Shown here: piece after piece, positions 683 through 11,904 of the stretch
Layout of the letters: each line of letters starts with the position of its first letter
How positions within the stretch are numbered: the first letter of the stretch is position 1
Source of the DNA: Bacteroidota bacterium
Lineage (GTDB): Bacteria > Bacteroidota > Bacteroidia > Bacteroidales > ML635J-15
DNA: 64,000 nt
Reading direction: 5' to 3'
Assembly: GCA_051747965.1 (NCBI GenBank)
Contig: JBNJGS010000003.1
Coordinates: forward strand, 7,125-71,124
Notes under the pieces: generated by a model
What the model was told of the DNA's origin: nothing
What the model saw: only the letters and a program-made list of their open reading frames with translations
Database searches by the model: none
Made by a program: the position numbers and the translations under genes

Positions 683-3067
683 ATGAATCATCTTGACGAT
701 TATCAATTCAAAGGGAAGAGGGCACTTGTCCGCGTTGATTTCAATGTTCCGCTGAACGATTCCGGAGAAATTACTGATGATACCCGGATTGTAACAGCCA
801 TCCCCACATTGCAGAAAATATTGACCGAGGGAGGTTCTGTCATCATCATGACCCATTTGGGTCGTCCGAAAGGAAAACATGATGATTCCCTGAGTGTCAG
901 AAGGATTTCAGATTATGTTGAGCGCATGCTGGGCAGGGAAATAAAAATAGCTCCTGATTGCACGGGTAAGGAGACAAAGAAAATGGCTGACAAGCTCAGG
1001 CCCGGTGAGGTATTGATGCTTGAGAATCTCCGTTTTCACAAAGAAGAGGTCATTGGAGATGAGGCATTTGCCAGGAAACTGGCTGATCTGGGAGATGTGT
1101 ATGTAAACAATGCTTTTGGTACAGCGCATCGTGCCCATGCCTCTACCTGCACAATTGCCAAATTCTTTCCATATGACAAGCTGTTCGGGTATTTGGTTGA
1201 ATCTGAGATAAAGGAAATTGACAGTTTGCTGAAGGAGGCAAAATCACCATTTACTGCCATCATTGGCGGAGCCAAAATATCTACAAAGATCAACATCATC
1301 GAAGCTTTGCTGGAAAAGGTTGACAATCTGATCATTGGTGGAGGAATTGTATTTACCTTTTTGAAAGCCAAAGGACTGGAAGTCGGGAAATCTCTTGTTG
1401 ACGATGATTATCTGGATGTAGCAGAGCGTATATTGCGGACTGCCGGCAAACGCGGGGTCAGGGTTTATTTACCGGAAGATATTTTAATAGCAGATGAATT
1501 CAGCAATGAAGCCAATATTGAGCATGTACCTGTCAACGAAATAAAGAAAGACTGGATGGGTATGGATATTGGTGTAAAATCTGCGGAAATATTTGAGCAG
1601 GTGATTATGAAATCAGCAAGCATTTTGTGGAATGGCCCCATGGGTGTATTTGAAATGAATCATTTTGCCTATGGCACGCTGAAAACCGGATTATCGGTAT
1701 CCCGGGCTACAGATAAGGGTGCATATTCTGTTGTTGGCGGAGGAGACAGTATAGCAGCATTGAAAAAATATGCACTGGAACACAAAATATCATACGTATC
1801 AACAGCAGGGGGTGCTTTGCTGGAGTACATTGAAGGGAAGAAGTTACCGAGTATCAAAGCCATCCGGGAGGATCATTCCATTGATGATTATGATTTTCGC
1901 GGCAAGCGTGCTTTGGTGAGGGTGGATTTCAATGTTCCCATGGACGAGAATCACAAAATCACTGATGACACACGTATCCGCACAGCCATCCCCACCATCA
2001 GAAAAATCATGTCAGAGGGAGGCAGTGTAATCATACTCACGCACCTTGGAAGGCCCAATGGCAAACGGGATATGGATTATTCGGTAAAACACATCATTCC
2101 CTATGTTTCAGATCTTTTAGGGACAGAGGTAAAATTTGCAGACAAGTGCCGGGGCGATGAGACAGAAAGAATTGTTAAAGAGCTTAATCCCGGCGATGTA
2201 CTTATGCTGGAAAACCTGCGTTTCACGAATGCAGAAACCGAAGGCTCTGAGAAATTCGCCAAAGAACTGGCCAAACTGGGTGATGTATATGTCAACAATG
2301 CCTTTGGTACAGCACATCGCAAACATGCCTCAACCTACACCATAGCCAGATTCTTCCCTGAAGACAAGATGCTGGGGTATCTCATGGAAAATGAAATGCA
2401 AAACATTAACCGCATATTGTACAAAGGAGAGAGACCATTTACAGCAGTTATCGGCGGAGCTAAGATATCCACAAAAATAGACATTGTCCTTGCATTGATT
2501 GAACGGGTGGATAATCTGATTATTGGCGGAGGCCTGGCCTTCAGCTTTATCAAAGCCATGGGTGGCGATGTTGGTGATTCTCTGGTTGACGAGGAGTCAC
2601 TTGATAAAGCCAAAGAGATTCTTAATCTTACCGCCCGCAGCAATGTAAAGCTATATTTACCGACCGATTGCCTTATTGGTGACGGAAAAACCAACAATGT
2701 AAAGATCAGACATTCTCACATCAATCGCATCCCAAAAGGATGGCGTGGTCTGGATATTGGTGTAAAAAGTGCTGAAACCTTCACCAGGGTCATTGAAAAC
2801 TCAAAATCCATTTTATGGAACGGCCCCATGGGTGTATTTGAAATGCCACATTTCAGTAATGGTACAATAAAAATTGCTTTGGCAACAGCCAGGGCAACAG
2901 ATTTTGGTGCGTTTTCACTGGTTGGTGGTGGTGATTCCATTGCAGCTCTGAAGCGTTATGGATTATCGCACAAAATTTCATATATTTCAACAGCCGGAGG
3001 AGCTTTACTGGAATACATTGAAGGAAAAGAATTGCCAAGTATAAAAGCTGTGAGAACCAAAATCTGA
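683..3067 (+). CDS. pgk: Tandem double phosphoglycerate kinase (PGK-PGK fusion, 794 aa)
   Basis: Two complete colinear PGK domains (aa ~1-396 and ~397-794). Each has RVDFNVP, DDTRI, HLGRP, LENLRF, AFGTAHR, GGAKISTKI, WNGPMGVFE, GGGDS and STAGGALLEY; no stop between them. Confidence 0.95.
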   Translation: MNHLDDYQFKGKRALVRVDFNVPLNDSGEITDDTRIVTAIPTLQKILTEGGSVIIMTHLGRPKGKHDDSLSVRRISDYVERMLGREIKIAPDCTGKETKKMADKLRPGEVLMLENLRFHKEEVIGDEAFARKLADLGDVYVNNAFGTAHRAHASTCTIAKFFPYDKLFGYLVESEIKEIDSLLKEAKSPFTAIIGGAKISTKINIIEALLEKVDNLIIGGGIVFTFLKAKGLEVGKSLVDDDYLDVAERILRTAGKRGVRVYLPEDILIADEFSNEANIEHVPVNEIKKDWMGMDIGVKSAEIFEQVIMKSASILWNGPMGVFEMNHFAYGTLKTGLSVSRATDKGAYSVVGGGDSIAALKKYALEHKISYVSTAGGALLEYIEGKKLPSIKAIREDHSIDDYDFRGKRALVRVDFNVPMDENHKITDDTRIRTAIPTIRKIMSEGGSVIILTHLGRPNGKRDMDYSVKHIIPYVSDLLGTEVKFADKCRGDETERIVKELNPGDVLMLENLRFTNAETEGSEKFAKELAKLGDVYVNNAFGTAHRKHASTYTIARFFPEDKMLGYLMENEMQNINRILYKGERPFTAVIGGAKISTKIDIVLALIERVDNLIIGGGLAFSFIKAMGGDVGDSLVDEESLDKAKEILNLTARSNVKLYLPTDCLIGDGKTNNVKIRHSHINRIPKGWRGLDIGVKSAETFTRVIENSKSILWNGPMGVFEMPHFSNGTIKIALATARATDFGAFSLVGGGDSIAALKRYGLSHKISYISTAGGALLEYIEGKELPSIKAVRTKI

Positions 3068-3098: not shown

Positions 3099-4394
3099 AT
3101 GTCATTAGAAGAACTCCCAAAAATTCAGGATGCCGATTTAGAAGGCAAGGTAGTACTGGTAAGATTTGACCATAACGTGGTAAAGGAAGGCATCATACAT
3201 GATCCTTACCGTATTGATATGACAATTGGCACGATGTATCACATCAACGCCAAGGGTGGTAAAATCATCATGATGACCCATGTCGGCAGACCCAGGGACA
3301 AGGAAACCGGTGAAATCACGATTGATGACGACGCATCGGTACAACCCATTGTTGATTACCTGAACAATAAACTGCACATCAACATTAAGGTACCTGAATT
3401 TGTCCCTCATGGCAAGAAAGGTTATCTGGGCATTGAAACCTCGATCAATCATCACATCAGGGATTTACGAAATGGAGATATAGACGGCATTTATCTTCCC
3501 AATACGCGTTGGTTTGCCGGAGAGGAAGCAGGTGGTGAAGATGCAGAACGTTTTGCTCTGCAGCTGGCAGGCCTGGCCGATGTATTTGTGAATGATGCTT
3601 TTGGCTCATGGCAACCCCATGCTTCTACAGTGGGAGTAAACAAGTTTTTACCCAATTATGCCGGCTACCTGATGCAAAAGGAAATTGCAAATCTTAACCG
3701 GATATATAATGCAAAATCGCCTTTTGTTGCTGTGGTGGCAGGAAGCAAGATGGATACAAAAATTGATTCACTGTATGCCCTGCTCGAGATTGCTGACAAG
3801 CTGGTGCTGGGCGGGGTCATATATAATGCATACCTGTGTGCCAAATATGATATCAGCATCAAAGGTGTCAACGAAGAAAATCTGAAACTTGCCAAAGACT
3901 TTGTTAAGCATGCAGAAAAACACAAGGATAAAATTATGGAACTTTCCTGTATTGTTGAGTCAGATACACTTGATGGCAAGAAAGAAGGCAAATACCGAAA
4001 GCACAATGTGAAAGATTTGAAAGCAGGCCAGGAACTCAATTATGTACTGGATGTAGCTCCCAGCTCATTTGAAGACGAAGAAGTGAAAGATGTGTTTCTT
4101 TCAGCGAAGACAATTTTCATCAATGCCGTAATGGGATTTACGCCCCATTTCAATGACGGCACCATGGCTCTTGATCAGCTAACCGACTCCAACCCTGAAG
4201 CTGTCAAACTATATGGTGGTGGAGATACCATGCAGGAACTCAAACGCCTGCTGCCCGGCCTTTATATTGTAGCCCTTGACAATCCCAAATACTACATTTT
4301 CACGGGCGGAGGAGCTGTTTTGAAAGCAATACAGGAGGGCACTTATCAAGGCCTTGAACCTGTTAAAGCACTGATGCAAAAATACAAGAAGTGA
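3099..4394 (+). CDS. Divergent phosphoglycerate kinase-family protein (431 aa)
   Basis: PGK-like motifs RFDHNV, HVGRP, PNTRWF, VNDAFG, GSKMDTKI, GGGDT, FTGGGA; several canonical residues altered. Confidence 0.88.
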   Translation: MSLEELPKIQDADLEGKVVLVRFDHNVVKEGIIHDPYRIDMTIGTMYHINAKGGKIIMMTHVGRPRDKETGEITIDDDASVQPIVDYLNNKLHINIKVPEFVPHGKKGYLGIETSINHHIRDLRNGDIDGIYLPNTRWFAGEEAGGEDAERFALQLAGLADVFVNDAFGSWQPHASTVGVNKFLPNYAGYLMQKEIANLNRIYNAKSPFVAVVAGSKMDTKIDSLYALLEIADKLVLGGVIYNAYLCAKYDISIKGVNEENLKLAKDFVKHAEKHKDKIMELSCIVESDTLDGKKEGKYRKHNVKDLKAGQELNYVLDVAPSSFEDEEVKDVFLSAKTIFINAVMGFTPHFNDGTMALDQLTDSNPEAVKLYGGGDTMQELKRLLPGLYIVALDNPKYYIFTGGGAVLKAIQEGTYQGLEPVKALMQKYKK

Positions 4395-4401
4395 TCAACG
4401 G

Positions 4402-6918
4402 TTAGAATTTTGCTGTAAACTGGTACGACACAGATCTGGGAGGCATCATATTTCCGGGTCTTTGCACCAGCTCTCTGTTGAACAGGTTTCTGATAACTAC
4501 TGAGCTCTTAATGTTTTCATTCATCTGCCAGCCTGCATGCATATCCCATGTAAGCATAGGCCTGTATTTGTTGTATGCATAATAATCTGTATAACCCGGC
4601 AAGACAGCATTGTTAAACATTTGTTCCCCGGGATCAGATGAGACAAAGATATTGTCCACTGCCAGCACAGGGCTGTGATAAATCATTGATATTCCTGCAG
4701 ACAAGACACTATACTCAAGGATGACATTGCCTTTTACACTGTGTTTGTATCTGTATTTCAGATAATCTGTCTCTCTGCTTTTTGTGGCATAAATCTCTTC
4801 CTTGTCAGCTTCATTGTCGTAAAGATTTACCGGGCTGAGATAGGTATATCCGGCAAACAGGGTGGCATCAAGCCCTCTGAAGATTTCTCCGCTTGCAGAA
4901 ACTGAAAAATCCATCCCGATGATTCTAACATCACCAATATTCATTGACTGGAATCCAATATTATCTGCCGTTGGCATCACAGTATCCGGAAGTGGCATAT
5001 ATGTTTCGGTATCAAAATATCCGAAAGAGAACTCCATCATGTTGTTGTATCTGGAATAAAAAGCCGAGATATCTGCAAAGCCTTTCCAGTCTCTACCTAT
5101 GCGAAAACCCTGGCGTCCGCCTACTTCTGCATTCCAACCTGTTTCGCTCTCCAGACGGGGGTTCGGAAAGACATTTAACATACCGGCAAAGGCAGTTGCT
5201 GTGTATTTTTCTGCTATACTGGGAAATCTATATCCCTGCCCAAAGCTTGCCCGCAGGTTTGTGTATTCCGCCAGGCGATAATTCGCTCCTGCCCTGAAAA
5301 CAGGTTTCACAGGTATTTCCATGCTTTTATTACCTATTTTAATATCAACCATGGATTCTGTTTGTGTTGTATCCACCCGATAATATTCACCCCTTACACC
5401 AACTGAGGTTTTCAGGTTTCCAAAATCATTGTCCACCTGCACATAGGCGGCCAGATTATTGCTGAAATGATTGCCATAGAGGTTGGATTCCACCTCTGCG
5501 TAGGAATTTACTCCACCGGTCGCAATTTTTGTGTAATCGCCAAGATCTGTTTGATACCGGTACTCGCCGTAATATATTTCACTATTGTTGTTTTTTGTGC
5601 TATCAGAGGGTATCCGGTTTTGAACTCTGTAATATCTGGTGCGGATACTGTATCTGGAGCCGTTGTCCTTATAATAATAAATAAAGGGGTCAATATTGAA
5701 CCTGATCCCTTCGTTGGGATTTGTTGCCCCTTCCATGCTCTGTAACGGCCGGATGACGATTGAATCATTACCACTTGTATCTGCAAGTGTTTCAGAAGAC
5801 CACAGCAGGAAATCAGATTTTTTACCACCCATTAAGTTTGCATTGACACCATAGGCGAGGCCGTCGATTTTTTTACTCCGGAAACGCATATTTGTGTTTA
5901 AGCGGGTTCTTTTATTGTAATTATCAGTACGATATCCTTCATCAACATAGTGCTTTCCTGCCAGAACAAAATCAAAATTCCCGAACTGCTGCTGATGAGC
6001 AAAACTCAATCCTCCGAACATGGGCTTATTTACCCAGTAGAATACTTCTTCGCGCACAGGAACTGATACCTCGCACTGGTCCTCCTGATAAAAATTTTCA
6101 TTGGTATAGAGTCTTGTATCCCAGGTTTTTCCATTGAGTTGTTTGATTGGATTTCCGGGTTGATTATAAAAGCCTACATTGTAAATAATCTTTGTCTGTG
6201 TTTTTTCTGTAGGATAAGCTGTACGCAGGTTAATGACACCATTCATGGCAGAGGATCCATACAGAACAGAAGATGCACCTTTGATGACTTCAACCTGAGA
6301 TACATTTTCCACAGGCAGGTAATCCCATTTCACATTGCCTGCATCGGCGGCAATGATAGGCAACTCGTCCACAAGCACAAGCACCCGGCTGCCGGCACCG
6401 TATGACCAGCCACTTCCCCCGCGTATGCTGGGTTGCTGATCATTGACATCAACACCGGGTATTTTATTTATGGCATCCTCCATATCATTGGTGTTTGTAT
6501 TTTCAATCATTTTTGGCTTGATAACTTCCATAGAAACTGTCACCTCCGAAAGTTTCTGCTCATATTTGGAAGCACTCACTACAACTTCTTCGATGATTTC
6601 TGCTTTCTCATGAAGGGTGACATTTTCAACAATGGTATCGTTTTCTGCAATTGTCATATTTTTTTCTACGGTATTGTATCCCACGTACTTGTATTTCACA
6701 AGGTAATCACCGGGTTTCAGCTCAAAGCTAAAATCACCGTCAAAGTCTGTGATTCCTCCATCTGTGAAATCCGTATCATCCTGCTCAATCATCACATTGA
6801 CACCATAAAGCGGTTCATTTTCAGGGTCTGTAACAGATCCCCGGAACAAACCCGTTTGTGCCCAGGCATTGGTAATCCCCAGACAAACTGATATTGTCAG
6901 AAAAAGTAGCTTTTGCAT
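4402..6918 (-). CDS. TonB-dependent receptor with N-terminal carboxypeptidase-regulatory-like domain
   Basis: Signal peptide MQKLLFL..AWAQ, N-terminal beta-sandwich, plug motifs (IRGG, VEVIKGASSVLYGSSAMNGVIN), NPRLESE, C-terminal F; start refined to ATG 6918. Confidence 0.92.
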   Translation of the reverse strand: MQKLLFLTISVCLGITNAWAQTGLFRGSVTDPENEPLYGVNVMIEQDDTDFTDGGITDFDGDFSFELKPGDYLVKYKYVGYNTVEKNMTIAENDTIVENVTLHEKAEIIEEVVVSASKYEQKLSEVTVSMEVIKPKMIENTNTNDMEDAINKIPGVDVNDQQPSIRGGSGWSYGAGSRVLVLVDELPIIAADAGNVKWDYLPVENVSQVEVIKGASSVLYGSSAMNGVINLRTAYPTEKTQTKIIYNVGFYNQPGNPIKQLNGKTWDTRLYTNENFYQEDQCEVSVPVREEVFYWVNKPMFGGLSFAHQQQFGNFDFVLAGKHYVDEGYRTDNYNKRTRLNTNMRFRSKKIDGLAYGVNANLMGGKKSDFLLWSSETLADTSGNDSIVIRPLQSMEGATNPNEGIRFNIDPFIYYYKDNGSRYSIRTRYYRVQNRIPSDSTKNNNSEIYYGEYRYQTDLGDYTKIATGGVNSYAEVESNLYGNHFSNNLAAYVQVDNDFGNLKTSVGVRGEYYRVDTTQTESMVDIKIGNKSMEIPVKPVFRAGANYRLAEYTNLRASFGQGYRFPSIAEKYTATAFAGMLNVFPNPRLESETGWNAEVGGRQGFRIGRDWKGFADISAFYSRYNNMMEFSFGYFDTETYMPLPDTVMPTADNIGFQSMNIGDVRIIGMDFSVSASGEIFRGLDATLFAGYTYLSPVNLYDNEADKEEIYATKSRETDYLKYRYKHSVKGNVILEYSVLSAGISMIYHSPVLAVDNIFVSSDPGEQMFNNAVLPGYTDYYAYNKYRPMLTWDMHAGWQMNENIKSSVVIRNLFNRELVQRPGNMMPPRSVSYQFTAKF

Positions 6919-6942
6919 AATCCCCGTCCATTGATTACAAAA

Positions 6943-6950
6943 CAAATGTA
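6943..6950 (-). promoter_or_regulatory. Bacteroidota sigma70 -7 element (TACATTTG)
   Basis: Matches TAnnTTTG, 24 nt upstream of the TonB receptor ATG. Confidence 0.6.
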
Positions 6951-7000
6951 ATAATATTTTTCATCCGTAAAAACCGCGGCAGATAATAGTGATGAAGCAC

Positions 7001-7027
7001 AAAAGACCGGCATCTTACCGGTCTTTT
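7001..7027 (-). terminator. Intrinsic terminator downstream of the T9SS adhesin gene
   Basis: AAAAGACCGG-N7-CCGGTCTTTT hairpin 24 nt after the stop at 7052. Confidence 0.7.
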
Positions 7028-7051
7028 GATCTTCATATATGGATTTGGTTT

Positions 7052-10000
7052 TTAACGCATCAGGGTAACTTTCCCTGTTCGCTCATAGACATTTCCGTAA
7101 TAATCTTCAAATTCCAGCATCCAGGTATAGACACCTTCCGGGCATTCCTGCTTGTTCATTGTACCATCCCATCCATCATCGTGATGATCAGACACAAAAA
7201 CTTTTTCACCCCAGCGGTTATAAACTTCCAGGTGATAGGATTCAAGATCAATTCCTGAAACGACAATGCCAAATTCCTCATTCACATCATCATAGTTGGG
7301 TGAGAATCCGGTAGGTGCAAATACCAACAACTCCCCTGCCACAGTCAGTTCAACCCGGGCAGTATCCTTACAGCCAAAGAGTGATTCAGTGGCAAGTTGC
7401 ACATTATATCTGCCGGGCTGGCTATAAGAATGCTGTGGATTTTCCTGTTCAGATAGGGTTCCGTCGGCAAAGTCCCAGTGATAAAAATAACCTCCGTCAG
7501 TATAATTTGTAAAAGTAACCAGGGGACTGTTGAGCGAAACATTGATCTTTGATGGCTCAAACTCCGCATCTGGTCGTGGATGTACAGTTATGGCCACATC
7601 ATCTCTGTTTCGGCATCCGTCGGTTGAGGTTACCAAAAGGTTGACATGGTATGTGGTGGCATTAAAGAATGTGTGTACCGGTTGTTTGTCAAATGAAAGG
7701 TTTTCCACATCCCCATCATCAAAATTCCAGCGGTATTCCTGACCAATATCCGGGCTACCTTCATTAAAATGTACGGTAAGCGGCTGACAACCTTCGGTTA
7801 CATCAGCATTGATTGCTATCGGTGGCAATTCCCGGGTTTCAACAGGATATTCAATATAAACACTGTCAAAGTGACAAGCATCCCAGGCTGTGAAGGCAAA
7901 TACAGAGTCTGTTTCTGGTGTCACAACAATTTCAGAACCTTCAATCAGGCTGTCATTCATATACACTTCATATGGCCAGCCACCGCCGCCTCTTAAGTTC
8001 ATGCTGAATGTCACCTCATCTCCCGGACAAACAGTATCGCGGTTGGCAATGACATCAAATTCCAGAGAATCCAGCACAGTGACTGTAAAGTAAGATGTAT
8101 CACTGATACAGCCTGTAGCATCCAAAACAAATGCTCCGTATTCTGTTGTTTCCTGCGGATATACTTCAATAGGATCCCCCATCATCCCGTGATGTGTCCA
8201 GAAGACATCATAGGGTGGCACACCACCGGTAATCATATTGAATCCAATGGTATCTGTCTGACCATAACATATGGTTGGGTCGTCAAGTGCCACAGTGGTG
8301 ATGGGTTCCGGTTGCATGACCGTATCAGAAATCACAAAATGACAATAATGATCGTCGGTAAGAGTGACGGTATATACGCCTGCGGGAACATTCTGCAAAT
8401 CTTCTTCCCAGGAGCCGTTTGACCAGCTATAGTGATATGGTGGAGTTCCGCCGGAGGCAGTGATTTCTACAGACCCGTCAGAATATCCACCGCAAGAAGC
8501 GTCGGTGGCCGTGATGGAAGCCGACAAAGGGGCATCCGGCTCTATGATTTCTACTGTATCATAAGCTACGCAATCGTGATTATCTGTAATGCTTACAGCA
8601 TAGGTACCCGGGTCCAGGGTATCAATGCTCTGGCCGATTTCACCATTGGACCAGTGATAATAATATGGTTCTGTTCCTCCGTAGACGTTTACTTCAGCCC
8701 AGCCATTGCCTTCCCCGTAGCATCTGACATCTTCATGTTCAATTTCTGCTGTTAGAGGCAGGTCAGGTTCGTCTATCTGTACATAGGCATAGGTCTGGCA
8801 ATTGTTTTGGTCGGTGATGGTAACAATATATATTCCGGCTTCTACATCTTCAAGGTCTTCAATACCGTCACCATTATTCCATTGATAATCATATGGTGGT
8901 GTTCCCCCGGTCACGCTTAGATCAATACTGCCATTTTCAAATCCGTGACATGATACATCTTCGGCCTGTATATTGGCAACAACAGGTTCGGGTTCAATTA
9001 CCACCATGGTATGTGAGAGGTCACAGCCATTGGCATCTGTAATGGTAATGGTGTAATTTCCGGCCGGAATATTCATCAAATCTTCTGTCAGCATGCCATT
9101 GTCCCATTCGTAGTAATAGGGTGGTGTTCCGCCGGCGGCAGTAACATCCAGGGCGCCATCATAACCACCATGACAGGAAACATTGGTAAATTCATAAGAC
9201 ATGCTAAGTGGCTCATCCGGCTCATCGATAAATACAGAGTCTTCATGCAGGCACCCCACAGAATCTGTGATGGTAAGATAATGCCAACCGGCATACACAT
9301 TCTCCACATTTTGCTGATCAACACCAGGCGGATCCCAGTAATATCCGTGTGGCAGGGCACCGCCACCAGATTCAGCATACAGGTTGCCGGTAGCTTCCCC
9401 ATGACAAAGTACATCATCCCCGTCGGTTTCAGACCAAATCGGTGGATAAAGGTGTGTCACATTCAGTTCCGAGGTGACTTCGCATCCGTACACATCAGAA
9501 ACTGTGACAAAGTAATATCCTGCAGGTACGTAAATGCTGTCGACAGGGTCCATATGTGTATTGACTACTCCGGTAGAATATTCAAAGGTGTAAGGCCCGG
9601 TTGAGTTGAGTGCTGTTACCGTAATAACTCCGGTAGTATCACCGAAGCAGAGAATATCATTACCATCAATTTCCATATCAAGTTCAGGCAGAGGAATGAT
9701 ATTGACTACATCCTGAACGGAGTCATCATCTTCATAAAAACCGGCCATCTCCCAGGTTTCATCAAACCAGTTGATGGGGATATAACCCAGCGGCACCGAT
9801 CCTTCCAGCAAAGGTCCGATTTCAAAGGGTCCGATAGAAATATCTTTTGCACCGTTTTTGGCTGTATCTACATAAACATATTCATCTTTTGCCAGGTAAT
9901 CTGATAAATCAACCTCAGGCACATGATAGCCCGGGGCACTGGCTTCAAGGTATTGTGTTTCTCCTGTTTCCGGGTCTTCGTAGGTAACCGGGAGGTTAAA

Positions 10001-11350
10001 TGCCGGTATTTCATTGGATTTGAATGGTGTTTCCAGCACAATTTCTATGGAGGCCCAGACTACGGAATAAAGGAAGTCGAAAGCCAGGGAGTCCCAGGTA
10101 TGATTGGTAAAACTCGGCGTAATATCATATTCTACACTGATGTCCATAGAGTCCCAGTTGTGGCAGGGATAGGTCACATTCAGGTCATTGTTGACTTCAA
10201 AGGTAATATCGGAAGCATCTCCGGCATCCACAACATTATCCCCATCGTTGGGATCGGTGACTGTATATGGCATACTGACCGGAAATCCGAGTGTTGTCCA
10301 GATGGTTGGGCAGAAATCAAATTCCTGTGTCATCCAGCTGTTCATATCAAAAGAAATCTGAAGAATATAATAATCAATGATTGCTGATACAGGACCTACA
10401 TCATAGTTTATGGTTCCTCCTTCAATGATATCAATCACCTGTGAAATTGCCGGTCCGGTGGGCGGTGGAATCAGATTTGCGATGGCACTTAGGAATGTCA
10501 GTACATTCAGATTGAAGTGTATCCAGTTATCCTGTCCGTAGGCATGCAGACACTGGGTTTGCGGGTCGAGCCAGTCAGTTGTTTCCACATAGGGCAGATC
10601 GATTTCTCCGGTCAAGCCGATGCCAAACCAATCCGGTATGATAACAGGCAGAATGTCATCATCACAAAAAGCAGGCAGGCCGGTAACGGGGTCAAGACAA
10701 GGATACACAACCTCTCCGGTGGCACCGTTAAGATAAAATATAGCAATCGAATCGTGTGGGAGAGGTTCGCCGGGTACTGGTTCAGAGGGTATGTTAAAGG
10801 AAGGGATCAGGGGTATGGTTGTTGTTCCAAAGAGTTCTACCACCAGGTCCATATGCATTCCCAGGCCAAACTCCAGATCCAGGGCAATGACCCCTGCCTC
10901 GGGAAAGTGTGTATCAAGATAATAATCATCCTGCACGTCATACCATGTATTGATGGTAACAGTTTCACCGTGGTCGAAGCTGTAATCATCAGGAAAATCA
11001 AGTGTAATTTCTACCGGATAATTGATATCAATCCATCCCAGTGTAAAGCCATGGATACTAAAAGTTGACCTGAATACACCCCAGAAGCCATAGTCCAGGC
11101 CCATGCCAAATGTCTCGCCGAAAAATTCTGTATAAGCTCCGATATGGTCCGACTCGTTCCATTCAAGATTGAAGATATCATAGTCAAAATCGAGGCTGAA
11201 TGCATCACCGGGCCCCCACATATCCTGGTCTTCTGTTTCGTAATTAATGTTATGTATAAGCACATTATCCGGGTTCTGTGAAAATACAGCAAATGGCAGC
11301 ATCAGCAAAAAGCTGCAGGCAATCAGGCTGACAAATTTTGGTTTTTTCAT
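7052..11350 (-). CDS. Large T9SS cargo: unrecognised N-terminal domain + SprB repeats + 2 PKD domains + type-B (gliding motility-associated) CTD
   Basis: Signal peptide; six C-x-G..DG..GGTPPY.Y.W SprB-like repeats; PKD motifs WNFDDG and WDFADG; CTD APTGFSPN..YNRWGE..GWDG..GVY..G.VTLMR. Confidence 0.9.
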   Translation of the reverse strand: MKKPKFVSLIACSFLLMLPFAVFSQNPDNVLIHNINYETEDQDMWGPGDAFSLDFDYDIFNLEWNESDHIGAYTEFFGETFGMGLDYGFWGVFRSTFSIHGFTLGWIDINYPVEITLDFPDDYSFDHGETVTINTWYDVQDDYYLDTHFPEAGVIALDLEFGLGMHMDLVVELFGTTTIPLIPSFNIPSEPVPGEPLPHDSIAIFYLNGATGEVVYPCLDPVTGLPAFCDDDILPVIIPDWFGIGLTGEIDLPYVETTDWLDPQTQCLHAYGQDNWIHFNLNVLTFLSAIANLIPPPTGPAISQVIDIIEGGTINYDVGPVSAIIDYYILQISFDMNSWMTQEFDFCPTIWTTLGFPVSMPYTVTDPNDGDNVVDAGDASDITFEVNNDLNVTYPCHNWDSMDISVEYDITPSFTNHTWDSLAFDFLYSVVWASIEIVLETPFKSNEIPAFNLPVTYEDPETGETQYLEASAPGYHVPEVDLSDYLAKDEYVYVDTAKNGAKDISIGPFEIGPLLEGSVPLGYIPINWFDETWEMAGFYEDDDSVQDVVNIIPLPELDMEIDGNDILCFGDTTGVITVTALNSTGPYTFEYSTGVVNTHMDPVDSIYVPAGYYFVTVSDVYGCEVTSELNVTHLYPPIWSETDGDDVLCHGEATGNLYAESGGGALPHGYYWDPPGVDQQNVENVYAGWHYLTITDSVGCLHEDSVFIDEPDEPLSMSYEFTNVSCHGGYDGALDVTAAGGTPPYYYEWDNGMLTEDLMNIPAGNYTITITDANGCDLSHTMVVIEPEPVVANIQAEDVSCHGFENGSIDLSVTGGTPPYDYQWNNGDGIEDLEDVEAGIYIVTITDQNNCQTYAYVQIDEPDLPLTAEIEHEDVRCYGEGNGWAEVNVYGGTEPYYYHWSNGEIGQSIDTLDPGTYAVSITDNHDCVAYDTVEIIEPDAPLSASITATDASCGGYSDGSVEITASGGTPPYHYSWSNGSWEEDLQNVPAGVYTVTLTDDHYCHFVISDTVMQPEPITTVALDDPTICYGQTDTIGFNMITGGVPPYDVFWTHHGMMGDPIEVYPQETTEYGAFVLDATGCISDTSYFTVTVLDSLEFDVIANRDTVCPGDEVTFSMNLRGGGGWPYEVYMNDSLIEGSEIVVTPETDSVFAFTAWDACHFDSVYIEYPVETRELPPIAINADVTEGCQPLTVHFNEGSPDIGQEYRWNFDDGDVENLSFDKQPVHTFFNATTYHVNLLVTSTDGCRNRDDVAITVHPRPDAEFEPSKINVSLNSPLVTFTNYTDGGYFYHWDFADGTLSEQENPQHSYSQPGRYNVQLATESLFGCKDTARVELTVAGELLVFAPTGFSPNYDDVNEEFGIVVSGIDLESYHLEVYNRWGEKVFVSDHHDDGWDGTMNKQECPEGVYTWMLEFEDYYGNVYERTGKVTLMR
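8303..9679 (-). repeat. Array of ~6 SprB-type protein repeats (~75 aa each)
   Basis: Units begin ILCFG, VLCHG, VSCHG, VSCHG, VRCYG, ASCGG, each followed by a GG.PPY.Y.W-like segment and Y.VTITD..GC; boundaries approximate. Confidence 0.85.
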
Positions 11351-11355
11351 ATCAA

Positions 11356-11904
11356 TCACCTCTCTATTATATCAGCAGACAACAGGCTGCTCATAATTGG
11401 TTTCAGTACGGTTTTTTTTAAACTTGCCGGATAATTTGCATTCAACCAGATGGTATAATTGTAACTTCCGGCAAACATCATTTTTCTTTCAAACTCTACC
11501 CCCTTTGCTTCAAAGCTGAGGGTATATATGACGCCACTCAACCCGGAACTCAATTCCACTTCTTTTCTGTCAATAAATTTCACCCCCTGGCTTTCAAAAT
11601 GCTCTTTGGTCATCACTTTGTCAATCACCGGCCAGCTTGTTCCATCCACATCTTTCACCTGAATACTTGCGCTGGTACCGGGATGGAGATACCCCGGAAT
11701 ATCCTTTGCAAAGACAAAATGCTCTGGCGGAATGATAGCAATGCGCGTATTATCCACACTATCAAGCAAGCTTTTATCATAGGGTTTTTCCTTTATGTCC
11801 TTCAGGTAGTAATCACCTATATCAGGAGCACTGTCTGTGGTATTCTGACCGAATACCACCACAGATAGAAAGACAAATAATCCGCTGACTACAAGTTTTT
11901 TCAT
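11356..11904 (-). CDS. Secreted hypothetical protein (~182 aa)
   Basis: Signal peptide MKKLVVSGLFVFLSVVVFGQ; stop lies 5 nt from the adhesin ATG, suggesting an operon. Confidence 0.8.
   Translation of the reverse strand: MKKLVVSGLFVFLSVVVFGQNTTDSAPDIGDYYLKDIKEKPYDKSLLDSVDNTRIAIIPPEHFVFAKDIPGYLHPGTSASIQVKDVDGTSWPVIDKVMTKEHFESQGVKFIDRKEVELSSGLSGVIYTLSFEAKGVEFERKMMFAGSYNYTIWLNANYPASLKKTVLKPIMSSLLSADIIER

Follow-up and report, generated by a model that had tools for sequence, protein, structure and literature searches.

The window, the 64,000-nucleotide stretch of Bacteroidales DNA analyzed here, carries near its start one open reading frame that encodes two phosphoglycerate kinase (PGK) modules in tandem, followed by a divergent PGK-like gene, referred to here as gene C. 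The relevant features and their positions in the window are as follows.

683..3067, + strand: tandem PGK-PGK gene (product P0001), 794 aa, no internal stop
683..1870, + strand: half A, a full PGK module, aa 1-396
1517..1789, + strand: C-domain stretch of half A (aa 279-369) with fusion-specific residues, a putative contact face
1846..1900, + strand: linker-less junction region; the halves meet at 1870/1871
1871..3067, + strand: half B, a full PGK module, aa 397-794, with the checked residues of half A at +396
2705..2977, + strand: the same C-domain stretch in half B (aa 675-765)
3099-4394, + strand: divergent PGK-like gene C, 431 aa, 31 nt downstream of the fusion and 33% identical to its halves

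The initial annotation, made by eye, had described one reading frame with two complete PGK domains and essentially no linker at ~1870, and both points are borne out: P0001 matched Pfam PF00162 in two stretches (973.7 bits) and, as had been anticipated, both matches span the whole 379-position model in a profile search of the genome, with the junction sequence as it had been quoted. Each half corresponds to the two-domain fold of PF00162 over about 390 aa. The halves, which had been judged to be about 60% identical, align without gaps and share 250 of 392 residues (64%) and 62.9% of their DNA (68, 78, and 42% at the three codon positions); the identity of 42% at third positions indicates that the duplication is old, and synonymous sites between the halves are near saturation. 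Their longest common exact DNA stretch is 24 nt, a tract that sits in a conserved motif and was not counted as gene conversion. Matches to Pfam rRNA_methylase and NCBIfam MnmM at aa 23-69 were treated as noise, as neither has a stretch that passes and both fall within a PGK domain, and a promoter and terminator scan returned sites no more frequently than in shuffled sequences.

PGK is known from textbooks as a monomeric enzyme that works by hinge bending, and P0001, with 794 aa and two modules, departs from its single-module architecture of about 45 kDa per chain. Both termini of PGK lie near each other on the N-domain, and it is this proximity that makes a join of zero length possible; PDB entry 1fw8 is a circularly permuted yeast PGK. 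The spacing between the motifs flanking the junction is 30 residues in all 111 pattern-matching rows out of the 120 examined. P0001 is the sole canonical-type PGK of the genome from which the window derives (G000; 2.85 Mb, 96% complete), the only other member of the PGK family being gene C, and this genome also encodes GAPDH.

Such a frame could in principle arise as an artefact of assembly or sequencing, or through recent, neutral read-through between two adjacent pgk genes; we regard either as vanishingly improbable, since both are refuted by conservation. Contigs from three of four sequencing runs span the junction with 0 differences (X4, 1628-1945; X5, 1336-2317; X8, 1811-2009), and X9 is without coverage there. 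X4 and X5 come from studies that include a possible source run and X8 from another study, in which its presence in an RNA library is no proof of transcription. Bins of the RNA runs that lacked coverage, and runs with a small share, were left out of this evidence. The best 120 of 4843 database matches are 783-868 aa long, are 59-97% identical to P0001 and cover 98-100% of it, and the full fusion also occurs in a genome that consists of a single contig (G002). Together with the near-saturated synonymous sites, these findings uphold the argument that the fusion is no assembly duplication, which had been made from the divergence of the halves and for which coverage across the junction had been proposed as a check. 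The one locus that points the other way is L114, in which a single in-frame TGA takes the place of a codon for Gly toward the end of half A (about 5132-5134); it may represent a sequencing error, a pseudogene or read-through. We considered L114 as an unfused ancestor and rejected it, as it is a fusion with a single TGA inside half A.

The fusion is the norm of the window's family and no one-off. Among 36 relatives from this family, the full fusion was present as a single ORF in 21, was cut by contig ends in one, and was replaced by a truncated form, described below, in 11; a canonical-type PGK was not found in three. Of the genomes searched alongside these relatives, 24 belong to other families, and none of them has the fusion. 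A sample of 400 genomes from the order contained the full fusion in 17 genomes of six further families, and none was found in a sample of 400 genomes from the phylum. The screen at E <= 1e-175 misses truncated forms (three of four known ones), so these absence counts are valid for full fusions only. The fusion has replaced the single pgk gene in several related families.

Active-site residues were mapped through alignments to 1PHP and 1VPE onto the human-numbered sites named in PMC7729029. Conservation was counted over 148 A and 151 B distinct halves, with six partial units excluded. Half A contains the residues of the 3-phosphoglycerate (3-PG) site (D19, N21, R35, H58, R61, R117, and R150) and of the nucleotide/Mg site (K198, K202, N317, E324, G352-354, D355, and G376-377), and half B has the equivalents of all of them at +396. 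By human numbering, both halves keep D23, N25, R38, H62, R65, R122, R170, K215, and K219, along with N336, E343, GGG-D374, and G395-G396. R38 belongs to the 3-PG basic patch, and K215 and G395-G396 to the nucleotide/Mg site. The basic patch further comprises D23, N25, H62, R65, R122, and R170 (PMC7729029, section 3.1), and the nucleotide/Mg site includes K219, N336, the ribose-binding E343, and GGG-D374 (PMC7729029; PMC4106842). Most of these residues are invariant across the 148 A and 151 B halves. Based on these residues, both halves of P0001 are likely to be active in the ordinary nucleotide-dependent transfer between 1,3-bisphosphoglycerate and 3-phosphoglycerate.

In human PGK, D218 forms salt bridges to R65 and R170 on closure. 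Both fusion halves have Thr at this position; D218 is also missing from 20 of the 34 rows labeled as single PGKs, and as it varies there too it is not a defining PGK residue. A second departure, D163N, is found in 80/148 A and 140/151 B halves. G394A, present in 145/148 A and 151/151 B halves, is a fusion-specific departure near the closure site, Gly being retained in 33 of the 34 single rows (the exception is a broken fusion half).

The initial annotation had also suggested specialized halves, and for this genome the suggestion is not supported: the halves of P0001 do not differ at any of the 24 tabulated active-site positions, and they evolve at equal rates. Specialization appears in sister lineages instead. 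A lineage of 34 members has changes of the A214D, N336D, F342Y, and T393S type around the nucleotide site that are confined to half A, K215Q marks half B of another (6/151 B halves), and in one genus (g3, below) half A is reduced to its C-domain. This recurrent asymmetry, as well as the separate supported clades that A and B halves form in the window's family, would favor a division of labor in the window's protein itself, by analogy with hexokinase I, with one half as the catalyst and the other as an allosteric sensor of a nucleotide or metabolite, or with the halves divided by direction or nucleotide. Such a division is improbable here: the tabulated active-site positions are identical between the halves and so is dN/dS, and across 114 proteins the half-specific positions are limited to 1 and 44.

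Measured against L071, dN/dS is 0.053 for half A and 0.045 for half B, and three further close pairs gave 0.04-0.12. Both halves are under purifying selection, and the earlier expectation that the fusion is kept by selection is supported by these values of about 0.05. In the tree that had been proposed alongside the dN/dS analysis, all 41 sampled halves formed one clade with support of 100/99 (IQ-TREE, 54 rows), which we interpret as a single origin of the fusion inside the Bacteroidales PGKs. In the window's family, the A and B halves bear no trace of recent conversion. A and B halves of the same genomes group together in several lineages, and local gene conversion is apparent from the sequences of two loci: L087 has an exact tract of 133 nt between its halves, with a fourfold-site identity of 0.66 versus 0.45-0.47 to the ortholog, and L095 has a conversion tract of 50 nt. 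The tree needs six changes of the A label, four of which are forced by starred branches. We dropped concerted evolution across the whole family as an explanation because the AU test does not reject a tree in which the A halves make up a single clade (p 0.315). We also do not claim that the fusion clade is sister to the single PGKs of genomes with gene C, a relation that has support of 1.0 in FastTree (with three of 24 new rows empty) and that IQ-TREE does not resolve.

The records that hold these loci mostly bear titles of uncultured Bacteroidales or Bacteroidota bins. Two fusion loci, L111 and L113, occur in records titled Aminicenantes and nest inside the fusion clade, which suggests transfer or mis-binning; the GC content of L113 is 52-59% throughout. 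Of two genomes with such records, G066 has gene C 5 kb from the fusion on the same contig and G067 has a single PGK 1 kb downstream of the fusion.

Certain C-domain residues that single PGKs do not have are conserved in both halves. In the half A stretch these are I279, H281, K299, R341, D344, and Y363, to which the family consensus adds E309. For H281, R341, D344, and others, conservation reaches 80% or more in each half and does not exceed 25% in 32 single PGKs, and a total of 14 residues combine conservation in the fusion A halves with rarity in single PGKs. The AlphaFold2 model that had been proposed for the full-length protein (pLDDT 86.8, pTM 0.53) gave each half a PGK fold and did not fix their relative orientation: its pTM is no better than the 0.52-0.56 expected for two unplaced halves, and the model contains no confident inter-half geometry.

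Additional evidence on the role of these residues comes from relatives in which the fusion has been reduced. The family includes a series, all of it represented within one genus, from the full fusion, through a drifting half A and a half A that consists of its C-domain only, to none. The window's own lineage (15 proteins) has two intact halves. In 11 of 19 genomes of genus g3 the product is about 640 aa and consists of the half A C-domain followed by a full PGK; no canonical-type PGK was found in three of the 19, which are 95-98% complete. One of the 11 truncated loci is located as follows.

L031, 3962-5878, - strand: truncated form, 638 aa, half A C-domain plus full PGK

The extra domain of the truncated form is 48% identical to A halves, 44% to B halves and 39% to singles, and on this basis we assign its origin to half A. 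It is without the 3-PG domain and the STGG loop, carries K219Q and a broken GGG motif, and keeps E343 and D374; it is likely to be non-catalytic and unable to bind 3-PG, as judged from these residues. Its dN/dS is 0.039-0.087 (six pairs). Six of the 14 fusion-specific residues are kept (I279, H281, K299, E309, R341, and Y363), and eight of the 14 are lost, as are 35 of 80 generally conserved residues. The six kept residues fall on a hairpin and on helices 298-309, 330-344, and 354-362 of the full-length AlphaFold2 model and, going by Rossmann topology, the fusion-specific residues should share one face. The truncated form was modeled with a pLDDT of 90 and a pTM of 0.84, with a disordered linker at 209-218, whereas a pTM of 0.64-0.66 would be expected for an unplaced extra domain (an arithmetic estimate with assumed errors). 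Residues 219-636 of this model match a whole PGK on superposition (Z 35.2, rmsd 2.3, 391 aligned), so that the extra domain must sit elsewhere on that PGK. The extra domain is thus predicted to dock on half B, a signal that may stem from covariation between paralogous columns. The full module of the truncated form is likely to be recombinant, its C-domain remaining fusion-like; about residues 60-135 are 72% identical to single Bacteroidales PGKs with a charged insertion versus 56-58% to fusion halves.

We consider a covalent pseudo-dimer, mediated by the C-domains and with two working sites, to be the likeliest reading of the fusion, since both halves conserve C-domain residues absent from single PGKs, and we give it about an even chance. 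The gene is a conserved duplication of pgk, in tandem and in frame, that places two modules in one chain, each of which would catalyze the ordinary PGK transfer, as expected from its residues. A conserved face of the C-terminal, nucleotide-binding domains would then hold the halves together, and it would be this contact and not a second catalytic center that keeps the second module, because relatives lose the catalytic features of either half and keep the C-domain. The pseudo-dimer put forward in the initial annotation is indirectly supported by the fixed junction length, the fusion-specific C-domain residues, and the retention and predicted docking of the truncated domain; it is not supported by the full-length model. 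Also at odds with it are the eight fusion-specific residues lost from the truncated domain, the fixed departures near the closure site in both halves (G394A, D163N, and Thr at D218), and the three g3 genomes without a canonical-type PGK.

The pTM of 0.53 would equally be expected if the halves were two independent PGKs without contact, left by an old duplication that lost a stop codon and retained for dosage or simply never undone. The equality of the P0001 halves in residues and rate fits this account, as does the absence of a canonical-type PGK from three of the 36 family genomes, and gene conversion of the kind seen in the 133-nt tract of L087 can maintain similarity between halves with no need for selection on symmetry. 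We find it unlikely, however, because it leaves unexplained a lone C-domain under purifying selection in 11 genomes, along with the predicted docking, the invariant junction length and the fusion-specific residues.

Gene C, which went unmentioned in the initial annotation, has W and Q in place of H169 and R170 and lacks the GxFE ribose-binding motif; it keeps D23, N25, R38, H62, R65, R122, K215, K219, GGGD, and TGGG, and its dN/dS against L071 is 0.054. It was detected in 58 of the 400 genomes of the order sample, including all those with the fusion (17 full and four truncated), in 33/33 fusion-bearing family relatives, and in 14 of 15 further fusion genomes, the exception being G067, a bin of 2.0 Mb that has a single PGK next to its fusion. 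The 342 genomes of the order sample without gene C yielded no full fusion. The two genes are neighbors throughout genus g1 and family f101 as sampled, as well as in G066, G071, and G075. Among the 35 C-positive genomes that lack the fusion, a single PGK is present in 24 and gene C alone in 11, and it is the sole PGK-family match in 4/4 genomes of family f73 and also in G027 and G028. Gene C is strongly conserved: at E <= 1e-120 it had 3481 matches, the best 120 of which are 71-98% identical. Proteins named from Desulfobacterales and Desulfobulbaceae are included among these 120. Because gene C occurs without the fusion, it probably functions as an independent enzyme, and an obligate complex with the fusion is unlikely. 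The nesting of the fusion within C-bearing genomes may reflect shared ancestry, or gene C may relax the load on the canonical enzyme.

The single PGKs of C-bearing genomes (L139-L162) form a separate clade, with support of 100/100 for six rows (IQ-TREE). At the positions of the fusion-specific residues they conserve a helix motif of their own, they often have Ala at G166, and they are possibly an oligomerizing or regulated PGK subfamily based on these sequences. One family member that is 95% complete (G030) has GAPDH genes and no PGK-family match, which may be an assembly gap.

This different motif on the same helix, the presence of gene C in 33/33, 17/17, and 14/15 fusion genomes, the neighboring positions of the two genes in several groups, and the lack of full fusions in the order-sample genomes without gene C are all features expected if the C-domain face bound another chain, either a second copy of the fusion in an oligomer or filament, or gene C in a multi-subunit PGK complex. 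We nevertheless rate this as quite unlikely, since gene C is not tied to the fusion, kin are not independent observations and the nesting may come from shared ancestry, and the model of the truncated form places the extra domain on its own chain. A more elaborate scheme, which we put forward tentatively as doubtful but conceivable, is that of a two-enzyme PGK step. Gene C, without its ribose motif, would possibly use another phosphoryl carrier, e.g., PPi or polyphosphate, beside an allosteric, hexokinase-I-like tandem PGK whose halves are coupled through a new C-domain interface, with the second nucleotide-binding domain as a regulatory module, caught at all stages between a symmetric dimer and a lone pseudo-domain. 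No description of a PPi-dependent PGK was found in the literature searched, which was mostly without subscription papers.

Animal hexokinases of 100 kDa are tandem duplication-fusions of a two-domain, hinge-closing glycolytic kinase that are regulated, and their lineages keep two intact halves or let one decay. The PGK fusion resembles them in its duplication-fusion and decay; the fold is unrelated, and regulation of the PGK can only be conjectured. The truncated half A of genus g3 is comparable to PGKL of T. brucei, a degenerate, "dead" PGK-like protein that keeps the PGK fold without catalysis (PMC4106842). The window's halves do not belong to this type, in which residues are lost and poorly conserved, as their residues are present and their dN/dS is about 0.05.

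The fold of each half is that of canonical bacterial PGK (EC 2.7.2.3) from G. stearothermophilus (1PHP), T. maritima (1VPE), and C. jejuni (3Q3V), with TM values to target of 0.87-0.94 for the P0001 model against 1php, 1vpe, and 3q3v (Foldseek). The fusion halves share the substrate, nucleotide and Mg residues of these enzymes, and the fusion differs from them in its two modules, fixed G394A and fusion-specific C-domain residues. The 46 matching PDB sequences are at most 511 aa long, and each matches one half only. PGK homodimers are described from Corynebacterium glutamicum, Pyrococcus woesei, and Methanothermus fervidus, and a tetramer from Sulfolobus solfataricus, such oligomers being linked to stability (PMC7729029). 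Like the fusion, they have more than one PGK module per particle; their subunits are non-covalent and identical, whereas the halves of the fusion are covalent and 64% identical.

Besides monomers, PGK is described in larger forms that are either oligomers or fused to TIM, PAS, CNB, or another domain (PMC7729029), PAS-, CNB-, or TrmB-fused PGKs are known (PMC7729029; PMC7826186), and the four passages of PMC7729029 that mention "two PGK" concern isoenzymes or genes. Thermotoga PGK-TIM (NF010569) and the PAS-, CNB-, and TrmB-PGKs resemble the fusion in that PGK is part of a longer chain, but the partner in the fusion is a second PGK. P0001 passes the NF010569 cut-off (977.7 vs. 883 bits). No Pfam match to a TIM domain was found in P0001, and both NF010569 stretches correspond to the PGK part of the model; as the score sums two PGK stretches with no TIM, the PGK/TIM name would be a mis-annotation, a trap that the fusion exposes. 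The initial annotation knew of no PGK-PGK tandem and left it to a search whether such proteins are common and already characterized. They are widespread in the family, and no description of one was found in the literature searched (without supplements and mostly without subscription papers). PGK-PGK adds a new architecture to a known enzyme; its decay series is informative, and no new chemistry is shown. As a natural, linker-less double PGK, it provides a ready test of hinge-closure coupling between modules, and the series from two intact halves through a drifting half and a lone C-domain to loss is a compact case of a duplicated enzyme becoming a pseudo-enzyme module. Gene C adds a PGK-like paralog that is the sole PGK-family gene in some genomes.

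Clustering of neighboring ORFs, with families judged by eye, revealed no conserved metabolic neighbors besides gene C. Directly upstream of the fusion, at 24-533 of the window, is the C-terminal part of a gene for a ChlI/ComM-type ATPase of the Mg-chelatase family, and the same neighbor is present in nine loci. Downstream, an ORF of 847 aa at 4402-6945 resembles a TonB-dependent receptor by eye; it is listed on the + strand, where its translation has stops, and its strand and frame are provisional. It is followed at 7052-11359 on the - strand by a gene for a repeat-rich, secreted-looking protein of 1435 aa, also named by eye. A family from this 4402-11359 neighborhood recurs beside gene C or the fusion in 29 loci.
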